Shown: piece after piece, positions 4,108-14,200 of the stretch
Numbering within the stretch: the stretch's first letter is position 1
How the letters are laid out: every line of letters begins with the position of its first letter
Assembly: GCA_964658305.1 (NCBI GenBank)
Contig: OZ210885.1
Location: 25,110,001 to 25,174,000, forward strand
From: Leptogorgia sarmentosa
Taxonomy: Eukaryota
DNA: 64,000 nucleotides
Reading direction: 5' to 3'
Made by a program: the position numbers and the translations under genes
The notes under the pieces: model-generated
The model's input: only the letters and a program-made list of their open reading frames with translations
The model's database searches: none
What the model was told of the DNA's origin: nothing

Positions 4108-5197
4108 GTATTAAAGATAATCAATACCACATGTGGTATTTTCTCCTTAATACAATTTCAATCAATTTGAGTATAACTATAATTTGGCAATTTTCAGGAT
4201 GCTAGAGGAGGAAAAAAACAAAGAGAAGACTCAGAACATGACTACAAGAAAGGTTCTGGGGGTTATATAAAGGTGCAAGGTACTAGAAAACTTGACTGTC
4301 CTGCAACCATACAAATCCGTGCTGTGCAAATATTTACGGAGTATAAAGTTGGAGAAACAACCTCAAAAAAAGCACTTAGGAAGTCTAAGGAAGGAGTGTT
4401 GCAACAGCTTCGTGATGACTTTGAGCAAAACAAAAGCATGGTCAGTGTGATGCGCTATTATATAAAAATCCCATTGATGATGGAGCACAAATCTCATCCT
4501 GTAGGACACACAGCTACAGTTGGCCACTATGTGGATGGAAAGGTGATCGACAAAATCCATGAGCTAGTGGCATCTAACATCACCAGTCCTGTGATGGTTA
4601 GTAAGTGTTTGGAACAATATGTAGAGAAAGAACTTTTTGGTACGAGCAGCCAAAAACCAAGCAAGGCTAACCGTAGATACTATCCCAGCAAGCACTCATG
4701 TGAGTAAGTACTCATGTGATGACCAGGAGTCATTAAAAAAGAAAGTGGAGGAGTGGGAAAAGGCTACACCAAAATCCAACTATTTTGTGAGGACACGAGA
4801 TGAAGTTACTGTTAATGGTGTGACTAAGGAAAACAAGTTTCTTTTTGTGCACCAGGAAGAATGGCAAAGAAAGCTGCTGTTAGGATATGGCGGAGAGCTT
4901 GTTTTAATGGATGCTACTTACAAGATGACAAAGTATGCAATTCCACTATTCTTCGTCTGCGTTCATGGGAACACTGGCTACACGGTCATAGCTGAGTTTT
5001 TATGCCAGAATGAAGATTCAGCAAGCATCCAGGAGGCACTGGCAATTTTGAAGGCATGGAATCCCTGCTGGAACCCCAAATATTTTATGGTGGACTATTC
5101 TCAATGCTCGTAATGATATGCGAACAACAAATTAAGGACAAACAAAGGTATTATCAAGCATAATGGAATAGATTATGCGCATGGATGGGTAACAGAG

Positions 5198-5207
5198 CTA
5201 TAAAAGG
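5198..5207 (+). promoter_or_regulatory. Candidate TATA box of the YR retroelement
   Basis: CTATAAAAGG about 100 bp inside the left end and about 100 bp upstream of the ATG at 5302. Confidence 0.45.
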
Positions 5208-5301
5208 TGGAAAACGCCATGAACTCGGCTCTTGTTCAGTTACACGATTGAAAGCAAGTGGCGATCTTTTGGAAGCAAGTGCACGACTCACCCGAATTCT
5301 T

Positions 5302-5436
5302 ATGGCCGAAGAACAAGTTCAGTTCCCTCAGGAACCCGTACACGAACCAATGGAGGCTCAAATCGAACCAGCCGATCCCGCGCCGCTGGTGGAAAATCCA
5401 AATGACGCCCCAATGCCAACCGACAATGACTTGGAG
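5302..5436 (+). CDS. Predicted shared leader exon (45 aa, acidic/Pro-rich) of the YR retroelement
   Basis: ATG at 5302; MAEEQVQFPQEP...DNDLE ends at GAG|GTAATT, a phase-0 donor. Confidence 0.6.
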
Positions 5437-5890
5437 GTAATTACAATCCTTGTTCTGCATTCTTGTCATCTCAGACCTTTGTTATTTTACTGCCTCACAT
5501 CGGCTCCCTCTGCGTCGTGTTACGCTCACCAGCCTTCTCGTTCGCTGGATTCTCGCTGCATATCACGGTTCGCCCGATATATAGGTTTTCATGCTATTTA
5601 TTGTATTTGTCTTGGATAATTTCGTTGTTTCAGCATGGCCTGTCCCGTGGATTCGGGTGAAGTTCTGCATGATTACATCGCGATTAGTTGCTTTTGTGCC
5701 CACTCATGCCGTGTTAGTGATTGCCACATCGGCTGTAGTTTCGGGTTTAGTTACCGACCCTGGTGATTATGTGTTTCTCCTGTAGTTTGCCGCAGAGGTT
5801 CGCGATCCCGCCTATATTGCTATGGGCCGAGAGAACATGAAGTCTAGGCATACTTATTTGTTAGGAACGCGCCTACCTTTCTGTGCTATG

Positions 5891-6420
5891 GGCGAGATTT
5901 CGCCAGGATTGAGTTCACGGCGGTTAATATCGGCCAGGTTTCGCCAGATCACAGTGGTTTATACTGTGGGTGAGATTTCGCCAGAGACGCTGTGCTTGTA
6001 GTGCGGTGCTTTGGCCCGAGTTGACACAGTCGTTCACTAGGCGCGAGATTTCGTGAGCGACAATTACATGTTATATGGGCGAGATTTCGCCACACAGTAA
6101 TTATAGTGGTTGATCTGGGCGAGGTTTCGCCAGGCACGAGTTTACAGTCGTCAATAGGCGCGAGATTTCGCGAGCGACGAGCTTATAGATGCTGTAGGGG
6201 CGAGAGTTTGCCACACAGTAATTACAGTGGTTGATGTGGGCGAGGTTTCGCCAGGCACGAGTTTGCCATCGTCAATAGACGCGAGACTTTGCGAGCGACC
6301 GGCTTATAGATAATGTGGGGGCGAGATTTCGCCACAAAGCAATTACAGATTACAGTGGTTGGCGTGGGCGAGGTTTCGTCACGTACGAGTTTATAGAGGT
6401 TATATGGGCGAGCGTTCGCC
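5891..6420 (+). repeat. Array of 13 palindromic 14-bp motifs (GGCGAGATTTCGCC) at about 40-bp period, with a 121-bp higher-order unit
   Basis: Motif starts at 5891, 5932, 5969, 6042, 6078, 6118, 6159, 6199, 6239, 6280, 6320, 6367 and 6407. Confidence 0.9.
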
Positions 6421-6476
6421 AGAGCGACATTGCGAACCTGTATTTATTGATTGTTTTGTTTGTTTTTTTGGCCTAG

Positions 6477-7166
6477 ACCCTTAAGGCAGAACTCAAGAGT
6501 CTGCGGGAGTCGGTTGAGGTCTTAACCAAAGCGACGGTAGAGAAGGTGATCGCTAAGATATTGAATTACGCTGCGCGTCCTTTATCCGAATTCAACAAAT
6601 TTGAGGCGTTGGATATGGTGGGGAACCTCCATAATGTCTCACACGAGCAGCAACATGCCAAACATGCATATCATCGCATGGTATATCAAACGTTGCGGGG
6701 GGAAATGCCTGTCCAGACGGAGCAGTTTCGTAGTTTGCTCTTACGTTTGTTGGGTGATAAAGACCACAAACGTATTTTTGATATTGTCTCCAAGGTGGAG
6801 AAGCAATTTCAGCGCCGTGCTCGCGTTGGGCCACAGCTTCCCGATTTCAATGCTCGCGCCCGAGTTCCTCCATATCGTCGTAATGCTGGTCGGTGTTTCT
6901 ATTGTCAACGTTTTGGCCACTTTCAAGCCCAGTGCCTTCAAAAGAAACGTGATGTACCGCAAGGCCGGGGCAGCCCGGCAGGTTCCAGCGTACAATCAGT
7001 ACTGCGAAGCTTCTGTCAGTTTGCTGTACCGGCCTCGGCGTATACATATCTAGATTTTGTCAATGGAAATGCGCATATGTTAGATTTGTGTGTAATATTT
7101 ACTTCATTATATTTGGTTTCTCTGCTTTGCTTTTGTTGTTTCCATTTATTGGGTAGCATGTCATAA
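6477..7166 (+). CDS. Gag-like protein with CCHC zinc knuckle (3' exon)
   Basis: T-rich acceptor ...TTTTTTGGCCTAG|ACC, in frame with ORF 6546-7166; CFYCQRFGHFQAQC. Confidence 0.75.
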   Translation, partial: TLKAELKSLRESVEVLTKATVEKVIAKILNYAARPLSEFNKFEALDMVGNLHNVSHEQQHAKHAYHRMVYQTLRGEMPVQTEQFRSLLLRLLGDKDHKRIFDIVSKVEKQFQRRARVGPQLPDFNARARVPPYRRNAGRCFYCQRFGHFQAQCLQKKRDVPQGRGSPAGSSVQSVLRSFCQFAVPASAYTYLDFVNGNAHMLDLCVIFTSLYLVSLLCFCCFHLLGSMS

Positions 7167-7324
7167 GGTGGGGTCCACTCGGTCTTTTCCTGCGGGTCCG
7201 GGGATATGAGCGCTTTGAAACAGGGTATCTCAGTCAGCCCTCCCTGCGTTCGCGGGGTCTTGGCGATCATATCCTTGCCGACCTTTTCTGGGTCAGATCT
7301 GGGGACTTCCTTTGTCTGTTGTAG

Positions 7325-9559
7325 AGACGGGTACCTGCCACTACCGTAAGCGACCGATTTGGGCAACAAGTCCAGGAATCGGTGGCCCAGATGCCTGTCC
7401 TACAATGGATTGATTCTTCTGGCGGCCCCGTGTTGGTCGGTGGGGATATGACGCCCAATCAAGATCTTGTGGCACACGTTTCCCAGGTCGAAAAAGGCCT
7501 GGCGTTGGGAGACGTCACTACTCTAACCTTACGCGATCCACGGACGTTCCATGTGGGGGAACTGCACAATCATGTCGAGTCGTGGACGGCGATGGCATCG
7601 CGCAATCCTTCTCCCGATCAGGTGGAAGTCTTAACGTGGATTAAACATAGGGTCTCGGTTTTCCCCTATTTTCAACATTTCAAAGGGACCTACCAACGAA
7701 TTTCGTATGACTCGGACCGCCCACCGCCTACACAGTTTCCCAATAATAAAATATGTGCCCAGTTTCAGGATTTCATTACCACAACCATTCGGACTCGTGT
7801 TGCGATAGGTGCTTTTGAAGTAGTTGGACGAGTTGGGGTGGTCGAGCCCCCTCATCTCGTTCTCCCCCTCACCGTTGAGCCACGAAAACCTCGTCTTTGT
7901 TACGACGCTCGCTTTCTAAACCTGTGGATGAAGGATCAGCCGTTCAAATTGGACTCCTTGCGCGATCTTCCCCGTTACGTTGGTAAAGATTCCTACCAGA
8001 CCATTCTGGATGACAAATCGGGTTATGATCACATCTTCATGACAGACGAGAGTCGCCCGTATTTTGGCTTTCAATGGGAGGGATGGTATTTTACTTATTG
8101 CACACTTCCCTTTGGCTGGAAAATATCTCCATATGTGTACCATACTACTGGTTTGCTTCCAACAAATTTCTTTCATTCGCTAAGATTACCGTGTCTTTTG
8201 TATATTGATGACCGTCATAATGGACAACTTCAGGTGCCATTAACTGAGGGCGCATACGCTGCATTGGCGACAGATGATGAGCGCCAGTTTGCCGCTGCCA
8301 AATCGGCCATCTTTCTTGTCGTATATTATTTGGTTACTCTCGGTTACTTCCTTGAGCTGAGTAAGTCCATTCTCGTTCCGTCGAGGGTGGTTCCTTACCT
8401 CGGCTTCCGAGCAGATTCCATGCATCAGGCGTTCAGGCTCATCCTCACCAAACGCGATCGTTTTGTCCAGCTCCTACATGAGATGTTGAGAAAACCAAAA
8501 GTCACTGTTCGTGATTTGCAACGTTTAGCGGGAAAATGCATCGCTTTTTCTCTCACCGTTCCAGCGGCCAAGTTATTTACCAGAGAGATGCATTCTGCCA
8601 TTTCTAGACACGTTCGCCCTTTTCCCCTCAACGATGATCTTAAAGCCGAGATAGAGCATTGGTTATTTCTCGACAATTGGGATGAGCCTTTGCCGTGGCG
8701 GGATGAACGACATGTTCGTGTGTCTATGGCGACCGACGCGTCCAATTCGGGCTGGGGCGGACTGATGTTGTCACCCGTTTCTGAACATGTTTCGGATTAC
8801 TGGGTGGGGGCAGAGTGTAAATGGGATATTGCCACCAAGGAAGCTACCGCAATTCATCGAATGTTGTTAGCGCGTCGTGATTCGCTGCGGGACACTCATG
8901 TGGATGTTCATGTTGACAACCAGTCAGTCATCCATGCATGGAATAACGAACGTCCCCGCAGTCCTTCGCTTCTTCAGGCACTCAAACAACTGTTTTTCAC
9001 CACTCTTGACATGAATGTCGTGTTACATCTCGTCTACATTCCAACGCAGGAGAACCCGGCTGATTTACCGTCACGTCGCCTATCGTGCCTCGATAGTCAC
9101 CTAACGCATTCATTATGGAACGTCGTTCAGAGGGACTTCGGGGGCCCTCAAGGGCATACATGTGATTTGATGGCCCTCGACTCCAATGCTATGTCCGATT
9201 TGGCAGGACAGATTCTTCCCCACTTTACGCCATCACCTGGATCGGCAGGAGTCAATTTTTTTGCGCAGAATTTTTCTCAGCACCAGGATATTATGCAGTT
9301 TCCCTATGTTTTCCCTCCCGCGGTGTTAGTGGGTCCGGTTTTGTCTGTCTTGTGCAGCCTCCGTCAGCCCTGCACCATCGTGGTAATCGATGCTTATCCG
9401 AGGCAGTATTGGTGGCCGTTGTTGGTGTCTCGATCCCGCAAGTCACTCAAACTGGCGTTGAAAGACGAATCGGGAGTTCTGTTGGTTCCCTCTAACAACG
9501 GTTGGGTGCCTCATCCGGGTTTACCTGGGGACTTGTGGGTTTTTGCGCTTGAATTCTGA
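7325..9559 (+). CDS. DIRS-type reverse transcriptase-RNase H-adenine methyltransferase-like polyprotein
   Basis: LDDKSGYDH, LPFGW, YIDD; RNase H ATDAS..KEA..VDN..NPAD; C-terminal DLMA...PYVFPP...YWWP; frame opens right after acceptor CTTTGTCTGTTGTAG| at 7324. Confidence 0.9.
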   Translation, partial: RRVPATTVSDRFGQQVQESVAQMPVLQWIDSSGGPVLVGGDMTPNQDLVAHVSQVEKGLALGDVTTLTLRDPRTFHVGELHNHVESWTAMASRNPSPDQVEVLTWIKHRVSVFPYFQHFKGTYQRISYDSDRPPPTQFPNNKICAQFQDFITTTIRTRVAIGAFEVVGRVGVVEPPHLVLPLTVEPRKPRLCYDARFLNLWMKDQPFKLDSLRDLPRYVGKDSYQTILDDKSGYDHIFMTDESRPYFGFQWEGWYFTYCTLPFGWKISPYVYHTTGLLPTNFFHSLRLPCLLYIDDRHNGQLQVPLTEGAYAALATDDERQFAAAKSAIFLVVYYLVTLGYFLELSKSILVPSRVVPYLGFRADSMHQAFRLILTKRDRFVQLLHEMLRKPKVTVRDLQRLAGKCIAFSLTVPAAKLFTREMHSAISRHVRPFPLNDDLKAEIEHWLFLDNWDEPLPWRDERHVRVSMATDASNSGWGGLMLSPVSEHVSDYWVGAECKWDIATKEATAIHRMLLARRDSLRDTHVDVHVDNQSVIHAWNNERPRSPSLLQALKQLFFTTLDMNVVLHLVYIPTQENPADLPSRRLSCLDSHLTHSLWNVVQRDFGGPQGHTCDLMALDSNAMSDLAGQILPHFTPSPGSAGVNFFAQNFSQHQDIMQFPYVFPPAVLVGPVLSVLCSLRQPCTIVVIDAYPRQYWWPLLVSRSRKSLKLALKDESGVLLVPSNNGWVPHPGLPGDLWVFALEF

Positions 9560-9780
9560 TGTCTGCCTGGCTCATGTCTCCCCTCCTAGTATATTGACGG
9601 TGTTAGTGAAATGATGGTCACAGACTGCATGTACATATGTGTATATTGATATCCATAGATACATAGATATATAATTATATACCTGTAATGGTGTGATCCC
9701 TATTAAAATACCAGACGTGTCTCATCAGGTGGTTTGTATCGCTTATAGTTTCTCAGTTTGGCCGTCTGTTATTCTTTTAG

Positions 9781-11121
9781 GCACTGCCAAGTATTGCCAA
9801 GCTATTCGTTCCTTCTGTAAAATGCCCCCAATGTGGGCATGCTAATGACTATGATTTTTTATATTGCCAATGCTGTGGTTACTGCCGGAAAGTGGTTCGT
9901 CAGGCAAACTATGATCAGCCTATTGTGGTTGATGTTGCGGCTATTGATCTGAGGATCCAGCAATTGTGTAATTTTGATAAAGCCACGAGTTATTCCAAGC
10001 AGAAAGAGTCGTTGCAACGAGAGTTGGAGGTGTTTTTAGCTGCTCTCCCTGGCCGTCGCTCCATAGTGTCAGCTGCTCCCAGCGATCTATGTCGTTTTTT
10101 GGTTTATAAGGATAAAGATGGAAAAACCCAGGTTCATCAACACGGCTGCCAGTTTCTGGGTCAAAAGGGAAAACATGGCTGTGGTTGTCCTATGCGACTT
10201 TCCTATAAGACGGTGGATTCGTATATTGGTAAGCTGCGATCTATTTTTCACGCAAATGGTCGAGATGGTGAATGGGATAAGCGGCTGGGTCTAGGTAACC
10301 CGGCAGCTGATAAGTCAGTTAAAGACTATCTACGCTTGGTGACTGCTGAGCAACTGCAAGCACGAGTTACACCTAAGCAAGCTACTCCATTTTTTGTTGA
10401 CAAGTTGACACAGTTGTCTTTACACCTTGAACGCAAGCTGGAGTCTGCTACAACGTCTATTGACCGGTTTCTCGTCGCTCGAGATCAGGCGTATTTCAAA
10501 CTCGCCTTTTTTAGTGGGGACAGGCCTGGTGACCTGGGCCAGATAAAAGTTCCGGAGATTCTCCGCTTTCCCAATGACGATGGTATGCTGCTCAATCACA
10601 TTTGGGGCAAAACGCTACGTGACGGCGATCAGAATGTTTTTGGTGTTCGTCGTAATCCGCATATCACCATTTGCCCTATTCGAGGTGTTGAGCAGTACAT
10701 TCAGGTTGCCCGTCAGATGAAAGTGGACCTCACTTCGGGATATCTCTTCCGCCCGACGACTCCCAAAGGGGGAATTCAAGATGCGCCATTCACGTCTTCG
10801 GCGGCCAAAGCTCGTTTAAAAGTATATTTAGGACAAATGGGAATGGATGACGGGGAGACGCTGCATGGGTTTTGAGCGGGCTGTGCCATTACTCTTGCCC
10901 TTACTGGTGCTGATCTGGCGGACATTATGCAGCATGTTGGCTGGGCTCGGCGGCATACAGCTTTGTATTATATGCAGTTGGCCAAGGTCTTACATCCCGC
11001 CGGAGCTTCTGCTCGCTTGGCCTCTGAGGATCTTGGGAATGCGGTTAACCCGTGGCAGGATGCAAATCAATTGCAACGATTTGTGGCCGCATTTCCTGTA
11101 GGCGCCTCGACGCGTTCGTGA
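9781..11121 (+). pseudogene. Zn-ribbon + ALOG domain + tyrosine recombinase; catalytic HxxR Arg replaced by TGA
   Basis: CPQC..CQCC; ALOG-like GKTQVH..C..CGCPMRL..VDSYIGKLR..NP; SGDRPGD, GKT, TLHGF*AG (TGA 10873-10875), HVGW..ALYY continuing in the same frame to 11121. Confidence 0.88.
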
Positions 11122-11211
11122 GTTTGGTGGTGGGAGGTAAATGTAGGTGGCTACGAGTGTCGTACTTGGTGTGATAACTAGAGGATAGGTTCAGGAGGAA
11201 AGTTAGTTTTG

Positions 11212-11282
11212 GGGTTAAGGAATGAGTATTGGGTTAAGGAATGAGGATTGGGTAAGAAATGAGTATTGGGTGAATGAGAGGG
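11212..11282 (+). repeat. About 19-bp G-rich tandem repeat (GGGTTAAGGAATGAGTATT), about 4 copies, in the 3' end of the YR element
   Basis: Units start at 11212, 11231, 11250 and 11268. Confidence 0.8.
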
Positions 11283-14200
11283 TATGTTGGATTTGGTTCG
11301 TGGGGATGATGAGGATGGGCGTATAGACAAAAAGGATCAGGTTGGACGCTGGCGCTGATCAATATTGCCATACCTTAAATAAACTGAGCATGAAGTCGAG
11401 CATTGAGAAATAGTATACTATTCCCTTGCTGAGATTGATGCAATTGAGAAGTGTTTTCCAACAATCACTGTCTATATCTGTGATTTTCACAGGGTCCAAG
11501 CTTGGCAAAGGTGGGCCAAGGCCAGCAAAAATGGTCTTTCCCATGACCAACAAAAGGACTTCCTCAGGCTGATGCAAAACTTGGCATATGCAGGAACACC
11601 AGAGCAGTACAACAAAAAGCTTGAAGAATTGAAGAAATGAAATGTGTATGTGGAGAACCGCAAAGTTCGTGATTATTGTGATAAGGTGTGGCTGCAGTGC
11701 TTTGGTCGGTGGGCACATGCTTTTAGAAAGCAACAAGTGGCCAACATAGTCAACACTAACAATGGTGTTGAAAGGCAAAACCACCTTTTCAAGTACAGTT
11801 ATCTGCCACGATCGATTGACAAGTCCATATATGGTATAGCACTGATGCTGGTAGAGTCATTCATACCAGACTCATATCAACGGTACCTGGACACCAACCT
11901 GAAACTGAGCAGCTGCCACAGAAGATATAATGAAGCTATTCCAGAATATTTGCACAATCGGCCACCCAACTTTGTGAAACACTGCCTCAAAAGCAAGTTC
12001 CCCTCAGCTGAATACAAGCAGTATGACATCAGGTGTGTCAACCATGAAAGGGGTGAATTTCTAGTTAGAAGCACTCATGACAGCAACCTGTTCTATGCTG
12101 TTAAGTTTGAGACACCTAGCTGCCAATGTGAAAGTTGGAGAAAATCCCAGTACCCATGCAAGCATTTCTTTGCAATTTTTAATTTCTTTGATGAGTGGAG
12201 TTTTTCATGCCTCCCAGAATTCTACAGAAATAGCGTTTTTCTCACCCGTGACATTGACCATGTCACTGCTCATATGCCTGCAGGGTTAGATGTAGAGCCT
12301 ACAAAGCAACAGTGTAGCTCTCAATGTGGTTCAGTAAAGAGTAATGATGATGCCAACAGTGAGGGATTAGAGAATGAGAACATTATTTCTGTGGCAGAAG
12401 CTGACCATGATTCTGATCGGAAACCAGACGAAGGGAATCCTGATGAAACAGCGAAATCATCCACCTGGCAACCTAATGCAACGAAAGTCCGTAGGATTCT
12501 TCTGGAAAAATTAGACTCTCTAAAAAATCTTGCTTTTGTTGTTGACGACTTCAAAGCACTTGACGATGCCAGTTCAGCCATTGACAAAATCATTTTGGAT
12601 CTTTATGGACGTTGCACTGATCAAAATGGGCTTCCACTATGCCAAAGTCCAGTTAAAAAGAAGCTGAAGTGTTGATTACCATAAGGTGTTTCACAAGAAA
12701 TTGCCAAAGCGAAGAAAGTTTACGAAGAAAGTTGCATCTCATGTCACTGTAGAAGAGAAAAAGCCTGTGGAAACTATTACAACAGAGGAAGTGAGTTTGT
12801 TCAGTATTTTGTGATATTTATATAATATGAATGTTTAATATTTGATATTTGATTTATATATTATATATATTTGATCTGCAAGTTGTTTTATACAGGTTGG
12901 TTCAATTTGTGATGTTGAGGAAACAAATGTTGATGGCATTGATGAAGTACAACCAATAGATGTAGATGTCAGTGCGACTGCCAGGGCATCTAGCAAATGC
13001 CTCTTCAATAGGTATGAAATAAATGCACTGTCAGGCTGAACAATAAAGATGTCATTCAATCACAACATGACCTATTTTTGCAAAGTCTGTGTTATTAAAT
13101 GTCTTGTACATTAAGACTGAATTATACAAAGTCTATTTGTTTATTTTTTAGTGAATTAGATGATGGACAGTACCAAAAATGTGACCCGGTGACACTAGTG
13201 CAGTCAACTAAACTGTCTTTAAAGGCTAATGACTCTGTACTGACAATCGGTCCCTTTAAAGTCACATTATCAGACTTATGGAGTATCCTCCAGCCTGGGT
13301 CTGTGAGTCCATCTGTTTGCAAACAGATAAAGGATGACGTACATAGATTTGTGCCAGGATGGCTTGCTGACACTGTAAGTTAAAAAATAATTGCATTTTT
13401 TGTTGAATTCTAGATTAGGCTATTAAGCACATGCAGAATTATCAATATTTAATGTTTATGTCATACTCTGTAGATTATCGACTCAACCTTGTGGAAAATT
13501 TCTCATGCTGCCAAACACATTTTGTGTGCAGATACAACGCTTGGCGAAGTTGTAAAACGTGGCTCAAGCACTCGCCGTCTCTGGCATGGTGTGAAATTTG
13601 ACAACATAGAGAAGATTCTCATCCCACTGAACATCAGCGGAGTACACTGGAATTTGTTTGTAAGTGCAATTTCACTATTATATTTATATACAATAGTTAT
13701 GTTATTTACAATAATTATGTACTAATTAGTTCTTACTTTGTTGATGGGTGGTGTGTATGGCATGGAACTGTAGAGTATGTATTGTATATTAATGTACTGT
13801 ATTTTAGGCACTACCCTGCAGTTTGGGGGGGGACTCAATCATCCAATTGTGTGGCTAATTTGTTAAATTATAGAATAACAGGAATAGGTAACAGTGTGAA
13901 TATTATGGCCTTTATGGCCTCTACATGTACAGTCAGTTACCTGCACCCTTGCTATTTTATAATTTATTTATTTTTTATACTTTTTTACTCTAATCAAATC
14001 AGTTACTAACATTGTAAACTATTTCTGTTGCAAAGGTCATTGACAAAATTCAAAAAAGTCGTATCTATATGACCCCATGAATGGAAACACTGCTGCATTA
14101 AAAATAGAAGCCACTTCAAGTCTTTTTCAGCTACTTGATCAATTGAGGTACTGGTACTACCGTATGTTAATGTATTTCTCATTTCTTAGTGCATATACAT

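Follow-up and report, generated by a model that had tools for sequence, protein, structure and literature searches.

Conserved splice signals in a DIRS-like retrotransposon of Leptogorgia sarmentosa suggest a common leader exon for Gag, Pol and recombinase

The element and its reading frames

We analyzed a stretch of 64,000 nucleotides from Leptogorgia sarmentosa (NCBI GenBank assembly GCA_964658305.1, contig OZ210885.1, positions 25,110,001 to 25,174,000 of the forward strand), which we call the window and whose first letter is position 1. It holds a whole DIRS-like retrotransposon with a tyrosine recombinase (YR). The element starts with a short coding leader exon and a predicted 5' splice donor, followed by the separate open reading frames (ORFs) of Gag, Pol and YR, each of which opens directly behind a predicted 3' splice acceptor. 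Table 1 collects the coordinates of these and all further features; ORFs are delimited from stop to stop.

The first-pass annotation had described a 45-codon ATG exon that ends in phase 0 at GAG/GTAATT (5436/5437), and the sequence agrees, i.e., all 135 nt are open. It also described correctly that the Gag, Pol and YR ORFs each open after a pyrimidine tract plus TAG and that the three ORFs (6477-7166, 7325-9559 and 9781-10875) do not overlap. Its further statement that none of them has a nearby in-frame ATG holds for Gag, with the first ATG at codon 47, and for YR (codon 138), but not for Pol, which has an ATG at codon 23.

At each of the three ORFs, 12 of the 15 bases upstream of TAG are pyrimidines. 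Since a TAG-delimited ORF begins directly after TAG, the phase 0 at the acceptors is automatic; the donor phase is the sole free coincidence inside the window. Furthermore, the window alone proves little, because on the plus strand of the element 29 AG sites are preceded by a comparable pyrimidine stretch. Among the other 33 window ORFs of at least 150 aa, 7 begin after TAG and a single one after TAG plus pyrimidine tract. With regard to paralogs, the donor GTAATT is identical in the two paralog contigs that bridge it, and one paralog in this genome has both leader frame and donor intact. An abundant paralog keeps the AG at 7323-7324, among the rows listed, and the indels of the most abundant paralog over 5252-5402 are all located upstream of the ATG.

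Table 1. Coordinates of the element, its predicted splice signals, the interrupted host gene and corresponding features in relatives. Positions refer to the window unless a metagenome locus (L plus number) is named; a slash marks a predicted exon border.
Feature	Position	Strand	Remarks
Whole DIRS-like retrotransposon with YR	5094-11416	+	6323 bp
5' terminal arm	5094-5110	+	ACTATTCTCAATGCTCG; imperfect inverted repeat of 11397-11416
Leader exon, coding part	5302-5436	+	ATG 5302-5304; 45 codons; acidic, Pro-rich; end ..DLE; donor gtaatt
Predicted 5' splice donor	5437-5442	+	GTAATT; phase 0
Predicted intron 1, leader to Gag	5437-6476	+	1040 nt; same interval 871-1625 nt in relatives
Tandem hairpin-forming repeats in intron 1	5878-6435	+	units 40 and 121 nt; core GGGCGAGATTTCGCC
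Predicted 3' acceptor before Gag	6455-6476	+	pyrimidine tract plus TAG; gtttttttggcctag/ACC
Gag ORF	6477-7166	+	229 aa; CCHC knuckle from 6894; first ATG codon 47
Predicted 3' acceptor before Pol	7305-7324	+	pyrimidine tract plus TAG; cctttgtctgttgtag/AGA
Pol ORF	7325-9559	+	744 aa; reverse transcriptase, RNase H-like, C-terminal domain of uncertain kind
Predicted 3' acceptor before recombinase	9761-9780	+	pyrimidine tract plus TAG; ctgttattcttttag/GCA
Tyrosine recombinase (YR)	9781-11121	+	zinc ribbon, ALOG DNA-binding domain, catalytic domain
3' terminal arm	11397-11416	+	CGAGCATTGAGAAATAGTAT; other half of junction palindrome
Interrupted host gene, MULE/ZSWIM-like transposase	4183-5093 and 11417-12675		Pfam: ZSWIM1-3 RNaseH-like, MULE, SWIM matches
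Junction palindromes	5094-5110 with 11397-11423; L011 1300-1345; L008 3946-3991; L031 6526-6563
Leader-Gag repeats in relatives	L011 1847-2406; L012 3482-3843; L031 306-828; L063 1574-2175; L067 1981-2694
Leader, L011 and L001			41 codons; donor gtagtt
Leader, L012			54 codons; donor gtaaat
Leader, L048			39 codons; donor gtaatt
Leader, L032 (identical to L050 and L056)			45 codons; donor gtgaat

Homology searches support the assignment of the three ORFs. For Gag, 24 homologues were found at E<=1e-5, the best with 72% identity. Pol matches the reverse transcriptase family RVT_1 (5.8e-7; 29.9 bits vs. a cut-off of 29.6; 32.3 bits for the Pol of the related locus L001), while its RNase H match (RT_RNaseH, 4e-5) lies with 24.2 bits just below the cut-off of 24.8. 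Pol residues 540-744, the C-terminal part in which the DIRS group, as opposed to Ngaro, has a methyltransferase-like domain, are without Pfam match; an Atlas lead (cluster score 0.94) has the Dam family in 13% of its members. The scan of Pol against viral contigs gave no match. The YR of the window shows an ALOG_dom match (8.4e-23) and the motif CPQCGHAND..CQCCGY. Its intact relative (L001 9671-11020) matches both ALOG_dom (2.1e-19) and Phage_integrase (7.8e-8; 32.7 bits, cut-off 27.1), and residues 12-35 of the latter protein match zinc-ribbon families at 1e-4 to 1e-5, i.e., under their cut-offs. The closest YR relatives are 73% identical; those with names are from sea anemones, and a named Gag relative is from an octocoral. 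These relatives by themselves make an anthozoan the probable host.

The open part of YR (9781-10875) comprises 364 aa, and the frame resumes at 10876-11121 past an in-frame TGA (10873-10875). This stop hits the catalytic domain at its conserved H-x-x-R box, and the DNA contigs agree with the window here. Since the catalytic domain is cut, the whole recombinase cannot be made by this copy; leader, Gag and Pol are all open in it.

Splice signals in relatives

To look beyond the window, we used 79 metagenome loci from a contig scan with an alignment of recombinase homologues, several of which hold whole elements. The loci are related to one another, such that the following acceptor counts do not represent independent events. 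Within each locus, the homologous first codon was located by tblastn, and an acceptor was accepted if a YAG (for YR) or a phase-0 AG was found after a tract with 73% pyrimidines or more.

For YR, a YAG with pyrimidine tract is located at the exact homologous codon in 56 of 59 loci and within a few codons in 58 of them. Random positions in the same loci pass in 1077 of 158000 trials, i.e., the chance rate is 0.68%. The acceptor triplet is TAG in 47 cases and CAG in 9, that is, the motif is kept even where no stop codon is present. The upstream tracts fall into 41 distinct 25-mers (about 30 clusters), and from this wide spread we conclude that the signal is maintained rather than merely inherited. 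For Gag and Pol, a looser window search was applied, for which 15.6% of trials succeed by chance. Here, 13 of 15 Gag starts pass, 9 of these at the exact codon, as do 12 of 18 Pol starts, where most failures are decayed copies.

The residues right after the acceptor AG are conserved as protein ([DE]LP.VAK[LM]F; R/K-L-x-E..K), which argues that reading enters from upstream. Across the family, most ORFs for Gag and for the recombinase have no early ATG; for the latter, 12 of 59 have one in the first 8 codons and 47 do not. We also considered that the recombinase has lost an ATG of its own, since database proteins start with MAKLF. This was rejected: most lineages have Val codons (GTA/GTG/GTT) at this position, and a true ATG is found only in L001, L002 and L011. 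The M of the called MAKLF proteins may represent a GTG or TTG start. In gene models of amphioxus and acorn worm, the recombinase exon begins at the homologous xLP and the exons before it vary; in two of these models, a short exon (48 or 78 residues) forms the N-terminus. As far as predicted genes go, these models show the YR start site being read as an acceptor in other phyla.

With regard to the leader, a Pro/Ala/Gln/Glu-rich ATG exon of 39-54 codons that ends in LE/GT is found upstream of Gag in five lineages, including the window (see Table 1). The donor varies among relatives, i.e., GAG is followed by gtaatt, gtagtt, gtaaat, gtgaat or gtttgt. Three more lineages show the leader exon without intact ATG. 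In L031, the exon end is present and an ATG is visible only in the next tandem copy; in L063 and L067, the leader end comes without in-frame ATG. The leaders of the latter two and of L042 are decayed versions. L048 and the L032 type (with its identical copies L050 and L056) are dead deletion derivatives that kept leader and recombinase and lost Gag and most of Pol. The recombinase of the L032 type stops at codon 258. A more distant relative, L008, has at 4131-4607 a leader-like ORF (MAEAEP.., Pro-rich, ..PPLE) that continues without intron into a coiled-coil ORF at the position of Gag. As a weak lead, L008 could represent a lineage without the intron or a copy derived from spliced RNA.

The first-pass annotation had set the conservation of donor, acceptors and phase among homologues as a test beforehand, and the comparison came out in its favor for YR, Gag and Pol starts as well as for the five leader lineages. 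Judged by the sequences of the relatives, on which this rests, the pattern is beyond chance and the conserved splice-signal architecture is real.

Ends, intron 1 and insertion site

The limits of the element follow from its empty site. We used three DNA-like runs as contigs, all from one sample and with no run type recorded. In each of them, one contig joins 5093 to 11417 and thereby skips 6323 bases, where the 7 bases at the joint (ACTATTC) are compatible with either side. Given these contigs, the limits are exact and the insertion is missing from a second allele or a paralog. Since the empty site is present in the same sample, the insertion is not old. The host gene reads MVDYS/LAEIDA across the insertion site (marked by the slash). 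Read depth is 85-110 in unique parts of the element vs. 170-265 in the flanks, i.e., about half. The uninterrupted host gene is found as a contig in the same runs with about twice the depth of the element. Within the window, no second copy of the element was found.

When the ends are joined, the terminal arms form a palindrome (Table 1). A loose end at 11423 in one run continues into the element's own 5' start, that is, it represents a head-to-tail junction, and tandem head-to-tail copies with the same conserved junction are found in L001 and L011. Conservation with the L011 head-to-tail junction covers the first ~35 nt of the element, and ~100 nt around the junction are conserved with both L011 and L001, though Pol is just 57% identical. 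L008 and L031 show GAGAATA-N6-TATTCTC at the junction position. Furthermore, the insertion target shares 7 bases with one terminal arm. From their sequence, the joined arms look like a recombinase attachment site, and integration appears to proceed via a circle or a head-to-tail form.

The predicted intron 1 contains tandem hairpin-forming repeats, and the RNA fold of 6026-6440 is far more stable than that of shuffled sequences (z = -6.67). Tandem repeats are located at the same place in L011/L001, L012, L031 and L063/L067, where the unit sequences are unrelated; unit lengths across the five lineages are 40/121, 141, 70, 68 and 96 nt. It is plausible that these repeats label the unspliced RNA for packaging and copying as the genome.

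Some further observations concern the ends and the copy number. Depth is 5 to 100 times that of the rest of the element at 5088-5331, 6064-6551, 7040-7771 and 11188-11431, and judging from the joints 7723>11211, 6434>7165 and 5251>11385, short elements with the same ends, either internally deleted or related, are abundant. The 3' untranslated part has a short tandem repeat at 11212-11271 (18-19 nt units, about 3 copies). A TATA-like motif (~5200) and an AATAAA (~11381) were considered as promoter and poly(A) site and dismissed, as their position is not conserved in L011.

Proposed expression and relation to known systems

We propose that one leader exon is spliced in frame to the Gag, Pol or YR acceptor and that the unspliced RNA is the template for copying. 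A primary transcript running from the leader through intron 1 and all three genes would, by alternative splicing of 5436 to 6477, 7325 or 9781, yield three mRNAs. In L011, the homologous joints would be 1684 to 2556, 3366 and 5701. Translation of the three mRNAs from the leader ATG would give leader-Gag, leader-Pol and leader-recombinase with their first 45 residues in common, and this peptide may serve in assembly or targeting, as the first-pass annotation suggested. Reverse transcription would use the unspliced RNA as the genome, which fits the observation that all copies keep the introns. We infer from sequence both the use of the sites by the spliceosome, with translation starting at the leader ATG, and the pairing of all three acceptors with the leader donor. 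Overall, we see a slightly better than even chance that this proposal is correct. The alternative splicing to three products put forward by the first-pass annotation is backed by the signals conserved in relatives and is weakened by the near ATG of Pol and by a second donor in many relatives.

Several observations weigh against the proposal. No leader-to-acceptor joint was seen in the contigs of the three DNA-like runs, and in the two large protein collections no protein joins the leader to Gag, Pol or YR of the family. Along the same line, the leader peptide had no match among the longer proteins of the protein collection, the leader was present in none of the Gag homologues examined (16 of 24), and the recombinase homologues of 454-500 aa that we examined all either contain pyrimidine tracts in translated form or begin with the ORF. 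The leader itself is not kept everywhere: it is frameshifted in L042, its ORF ends in a stop in L047, and none was found upstream of Gag in L043, L054 and the first L001 copy. In the most abundant paralog, it seems 4 nt short just ahead of the exon end (seen in a 30-letter loose end), a change that would disrupt the frame. The leader peptides are of low complexity and just 19-31% alike between lineages with one invariant column, and as the donor set the frame for reading the leaders, part of their phase-0 count was to be expected. For L008, the Gag-like ORF has no significant similarity to the Gag of the window (BLASTP E = 1), nor is there any to the leader. Finally, Pol has its ATG at codon 23 here and 3-7 codons from the acceptor in several relatives, and many relatives show a phase-0 GT 1-8 codons before the Pol stop.

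The last observation leads to an alternative in which the leader donor serves Gag and perhaps Pol, while YR is made as a Pol-recombinase fusion with the Pol-YR spacer removed as an intron. Such a GT is found in most lineages, and it is GTA, 1-7 codons ahead of the stop, in 7 of 13 hand-picked, related lineages compared to 15% of 405 Val codons (p about 0.001). Given this candidate phase-0 GTA donor at the Pol end, the recombinase may also, or instead, be produced as a Pol-YR fusion. With 45-340 nt, the spacers are as long as short introns, and in one amphioxus gene model the end of Pol is connected to the recombinase at the homologous position (..ELWA/PLPLV). Positions of the Pol-end GTA are, e.g., L001 9577, L059 3964 and L067 6118, with a further example in L032. 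On the other hand, the copy in the window has no GTR there and only a TGG/gttttt six codons before the stop, L071, L005 and the L031 type have no such GT at all, the lineages are hand-picked and mutually related, and the amphioxus protein is itself a gene model. In addition, the last Pol residues (V.F, then stop) are conserved as protein, which argues that Pol also ends at its own stop. We thus rate an exclusive fusion route as unlikely, though with a chance worth reckoning with. A polyprotein of leader, Gag, Pol and YR by serial splicing of three introns, where partial splicing sets the product ratio, is clearly less probable and would in our eyes be a surprise. All three spacers do end in acceptor-like sites, the Gag tail of the window has four phase-0 GTA codons after the knuckle, and a GT overlaps the Gag stop in L001/L011, L043, L047 and L063. 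But the latter GT is in phase 2, and by-eye inspection of the L001 Pol acceptor revealed no AG that places a phase-2 donor in frame. Moreover, the Gag tail of L001/L011 is without any phase-0 GT, which supports the leader donor for Pol, and no conserved in-phase donor was found at the Gag ends of 5 loci. The phase-2 GT at or before the Gag stop is located at L001 7020, L011 3050, L043 4993, L047 2624, L063 3115, window 7160 and L012 4462, and GTCATAA at the Gag stop is common to the window and L012.

Expression could also do without cis-splicing altogether, i.e., by internal or non-AUG initiation, by reinitiation or by trans-splicing of a host spliced leader, in which case the tracts have another role or none. 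This would agree with the Pol's own ATG here and in several relatives and with the absence of a spliced product from the data sets searched (protein collections and DNA-like contigs). It is hard to reconcile with a tract plus YAG at one and the same codon in nearly all YR starts, far above the chance rate, with the 47 of 59 YR ORFs that have no ATG in their first 8 codons, and with protein conservation from the first codon after AG; trans-splicing would need an ATG in each ORF. Such a mode of expression therefore has a small probability in our assessment. The least credible explanation, to which we assign next to no weight, is that the pattern in the window came about by chance in a dead copy and has no bearing on expression. 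The recombinase is indeed cut by a stop, and the 29 similar AG sites within the element would fit. Yet the same architecture is found in diverged relatives, Gag, Pol and leader are open here, the insertion is not old, and the comparative counts already contradict it.

The proposed in-frame splicing from the leader can be extended to the whole clade of YR retrotransposons from cnidarians to amphioxus, which would then share retrovirus-like splicing, a common N-terminal peptide and intron 1 repeats that mark the genome RNA. This extension is tentative, and we regard it as a possibility rather than as the expected outcome. With conserved splice signals, it would become clear why ORF finders and gene predictors take many copies for 'broken', and annotators gain a rule for spotting intact ones. 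If the proposal is true, a retroelement without long terminal repeats (LTRs) or DDE integrase has converged on the retroviral solution, and its introns survive reverse transcription.

With regard to classification, the element shows a reverse transcriptase (RVT_1) and, based on the intact L001 relative, a tyrosine recombinase instead of a DDE integrase, as is characteristic of the DIRS order. Its recombinase with zinc ribbon and ALOG domain corresponds to the ALOG class. DIRS1-like elements have inverted terminal repeats plus internal complementary regions, and PAT-like elements have split direct repeats (Piednoel et al. 2011, PMC3266345; Szitenberg et al. 2014, PMC4157794). A comparison of the ends with the interior gave no inverted or direct repeat of at least 20 nt, where the terminal inverted bases are just 13 (perfect) or 17-20 (imperfect); no split direct repeats (A1..B1A2B2) of the kind seen in PAT-like and Ngaro elements were detected by self-comparison with 7-nt words, and no LTR was found in the element. 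We note that an excised stretch of a head-to-tail tandem could mimic split direct repeats. The element is thus filed in the DIRS order and the ALOG class and, because it shows the repeats of neither DIRS1-like nor PAT-like elements, in neither superfamily.

ALOG-domain DIRS1-like retroposons have been described with hosts that include cnidarians, where metazoan copies were called inactive due to stops and fragmentation, and the respective Ectocarpus element has 159-bp terminal direct repeats (Iyer and Aravind 2012, PMC3537659). Our element resembles these retroposons in its zinc-knuckle Gag, its reverse transcriptase with a putative RNase H and a further putative Pol domain, and its recombinase composed of zinc ribbon, ALOG and catalytic domain. 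It differs in its conserved design of three separate ORFs with an acceptor before each, in its empty site and in having no long terminal repeat. Compared with DIRS1-like and PAT-like elements, it shares Gag, reverse transcriptase with a putative RNase H, and tyrosine recombinase, apparently no staggered-cut duplication, and a circular or head-to-tail junction; unlike them, it has inverted arms of only 17-20 nt and ORFs that do not overlap. Neither 'intron' nor 'splic' occurs in PMC3537659 or in the DIRS1-like overview PMC3266345. Within open-access full texts, which exclude subscription papers such as the original ones by Goodwin and Poulter, we found no leader-exon splicing in DIRS, PAT or Ngaro elements, and the open-access literature gave no explanation for the expression of DIRS-type ORFs without start codons.

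For the proposed mode of expression, the closest parallel is provided by retroviruses. Foamy viruses make Pol from its own spliced mRNA, and this Pol is the nearest counterpart of the proposed scheme of one 5' donor, several acceptors and an unspliced genome. As in retroviruses, a structured region is located downstream of the donor and would be present in the unspliced RNA only. In contrast to retroviruses, Gag itself would need splicing, and the coding leader would give a common N-terminal peptide. Furthermore, the element has no LTRs and integrates by a tyrosine recombinase instead of a DDE integrase.

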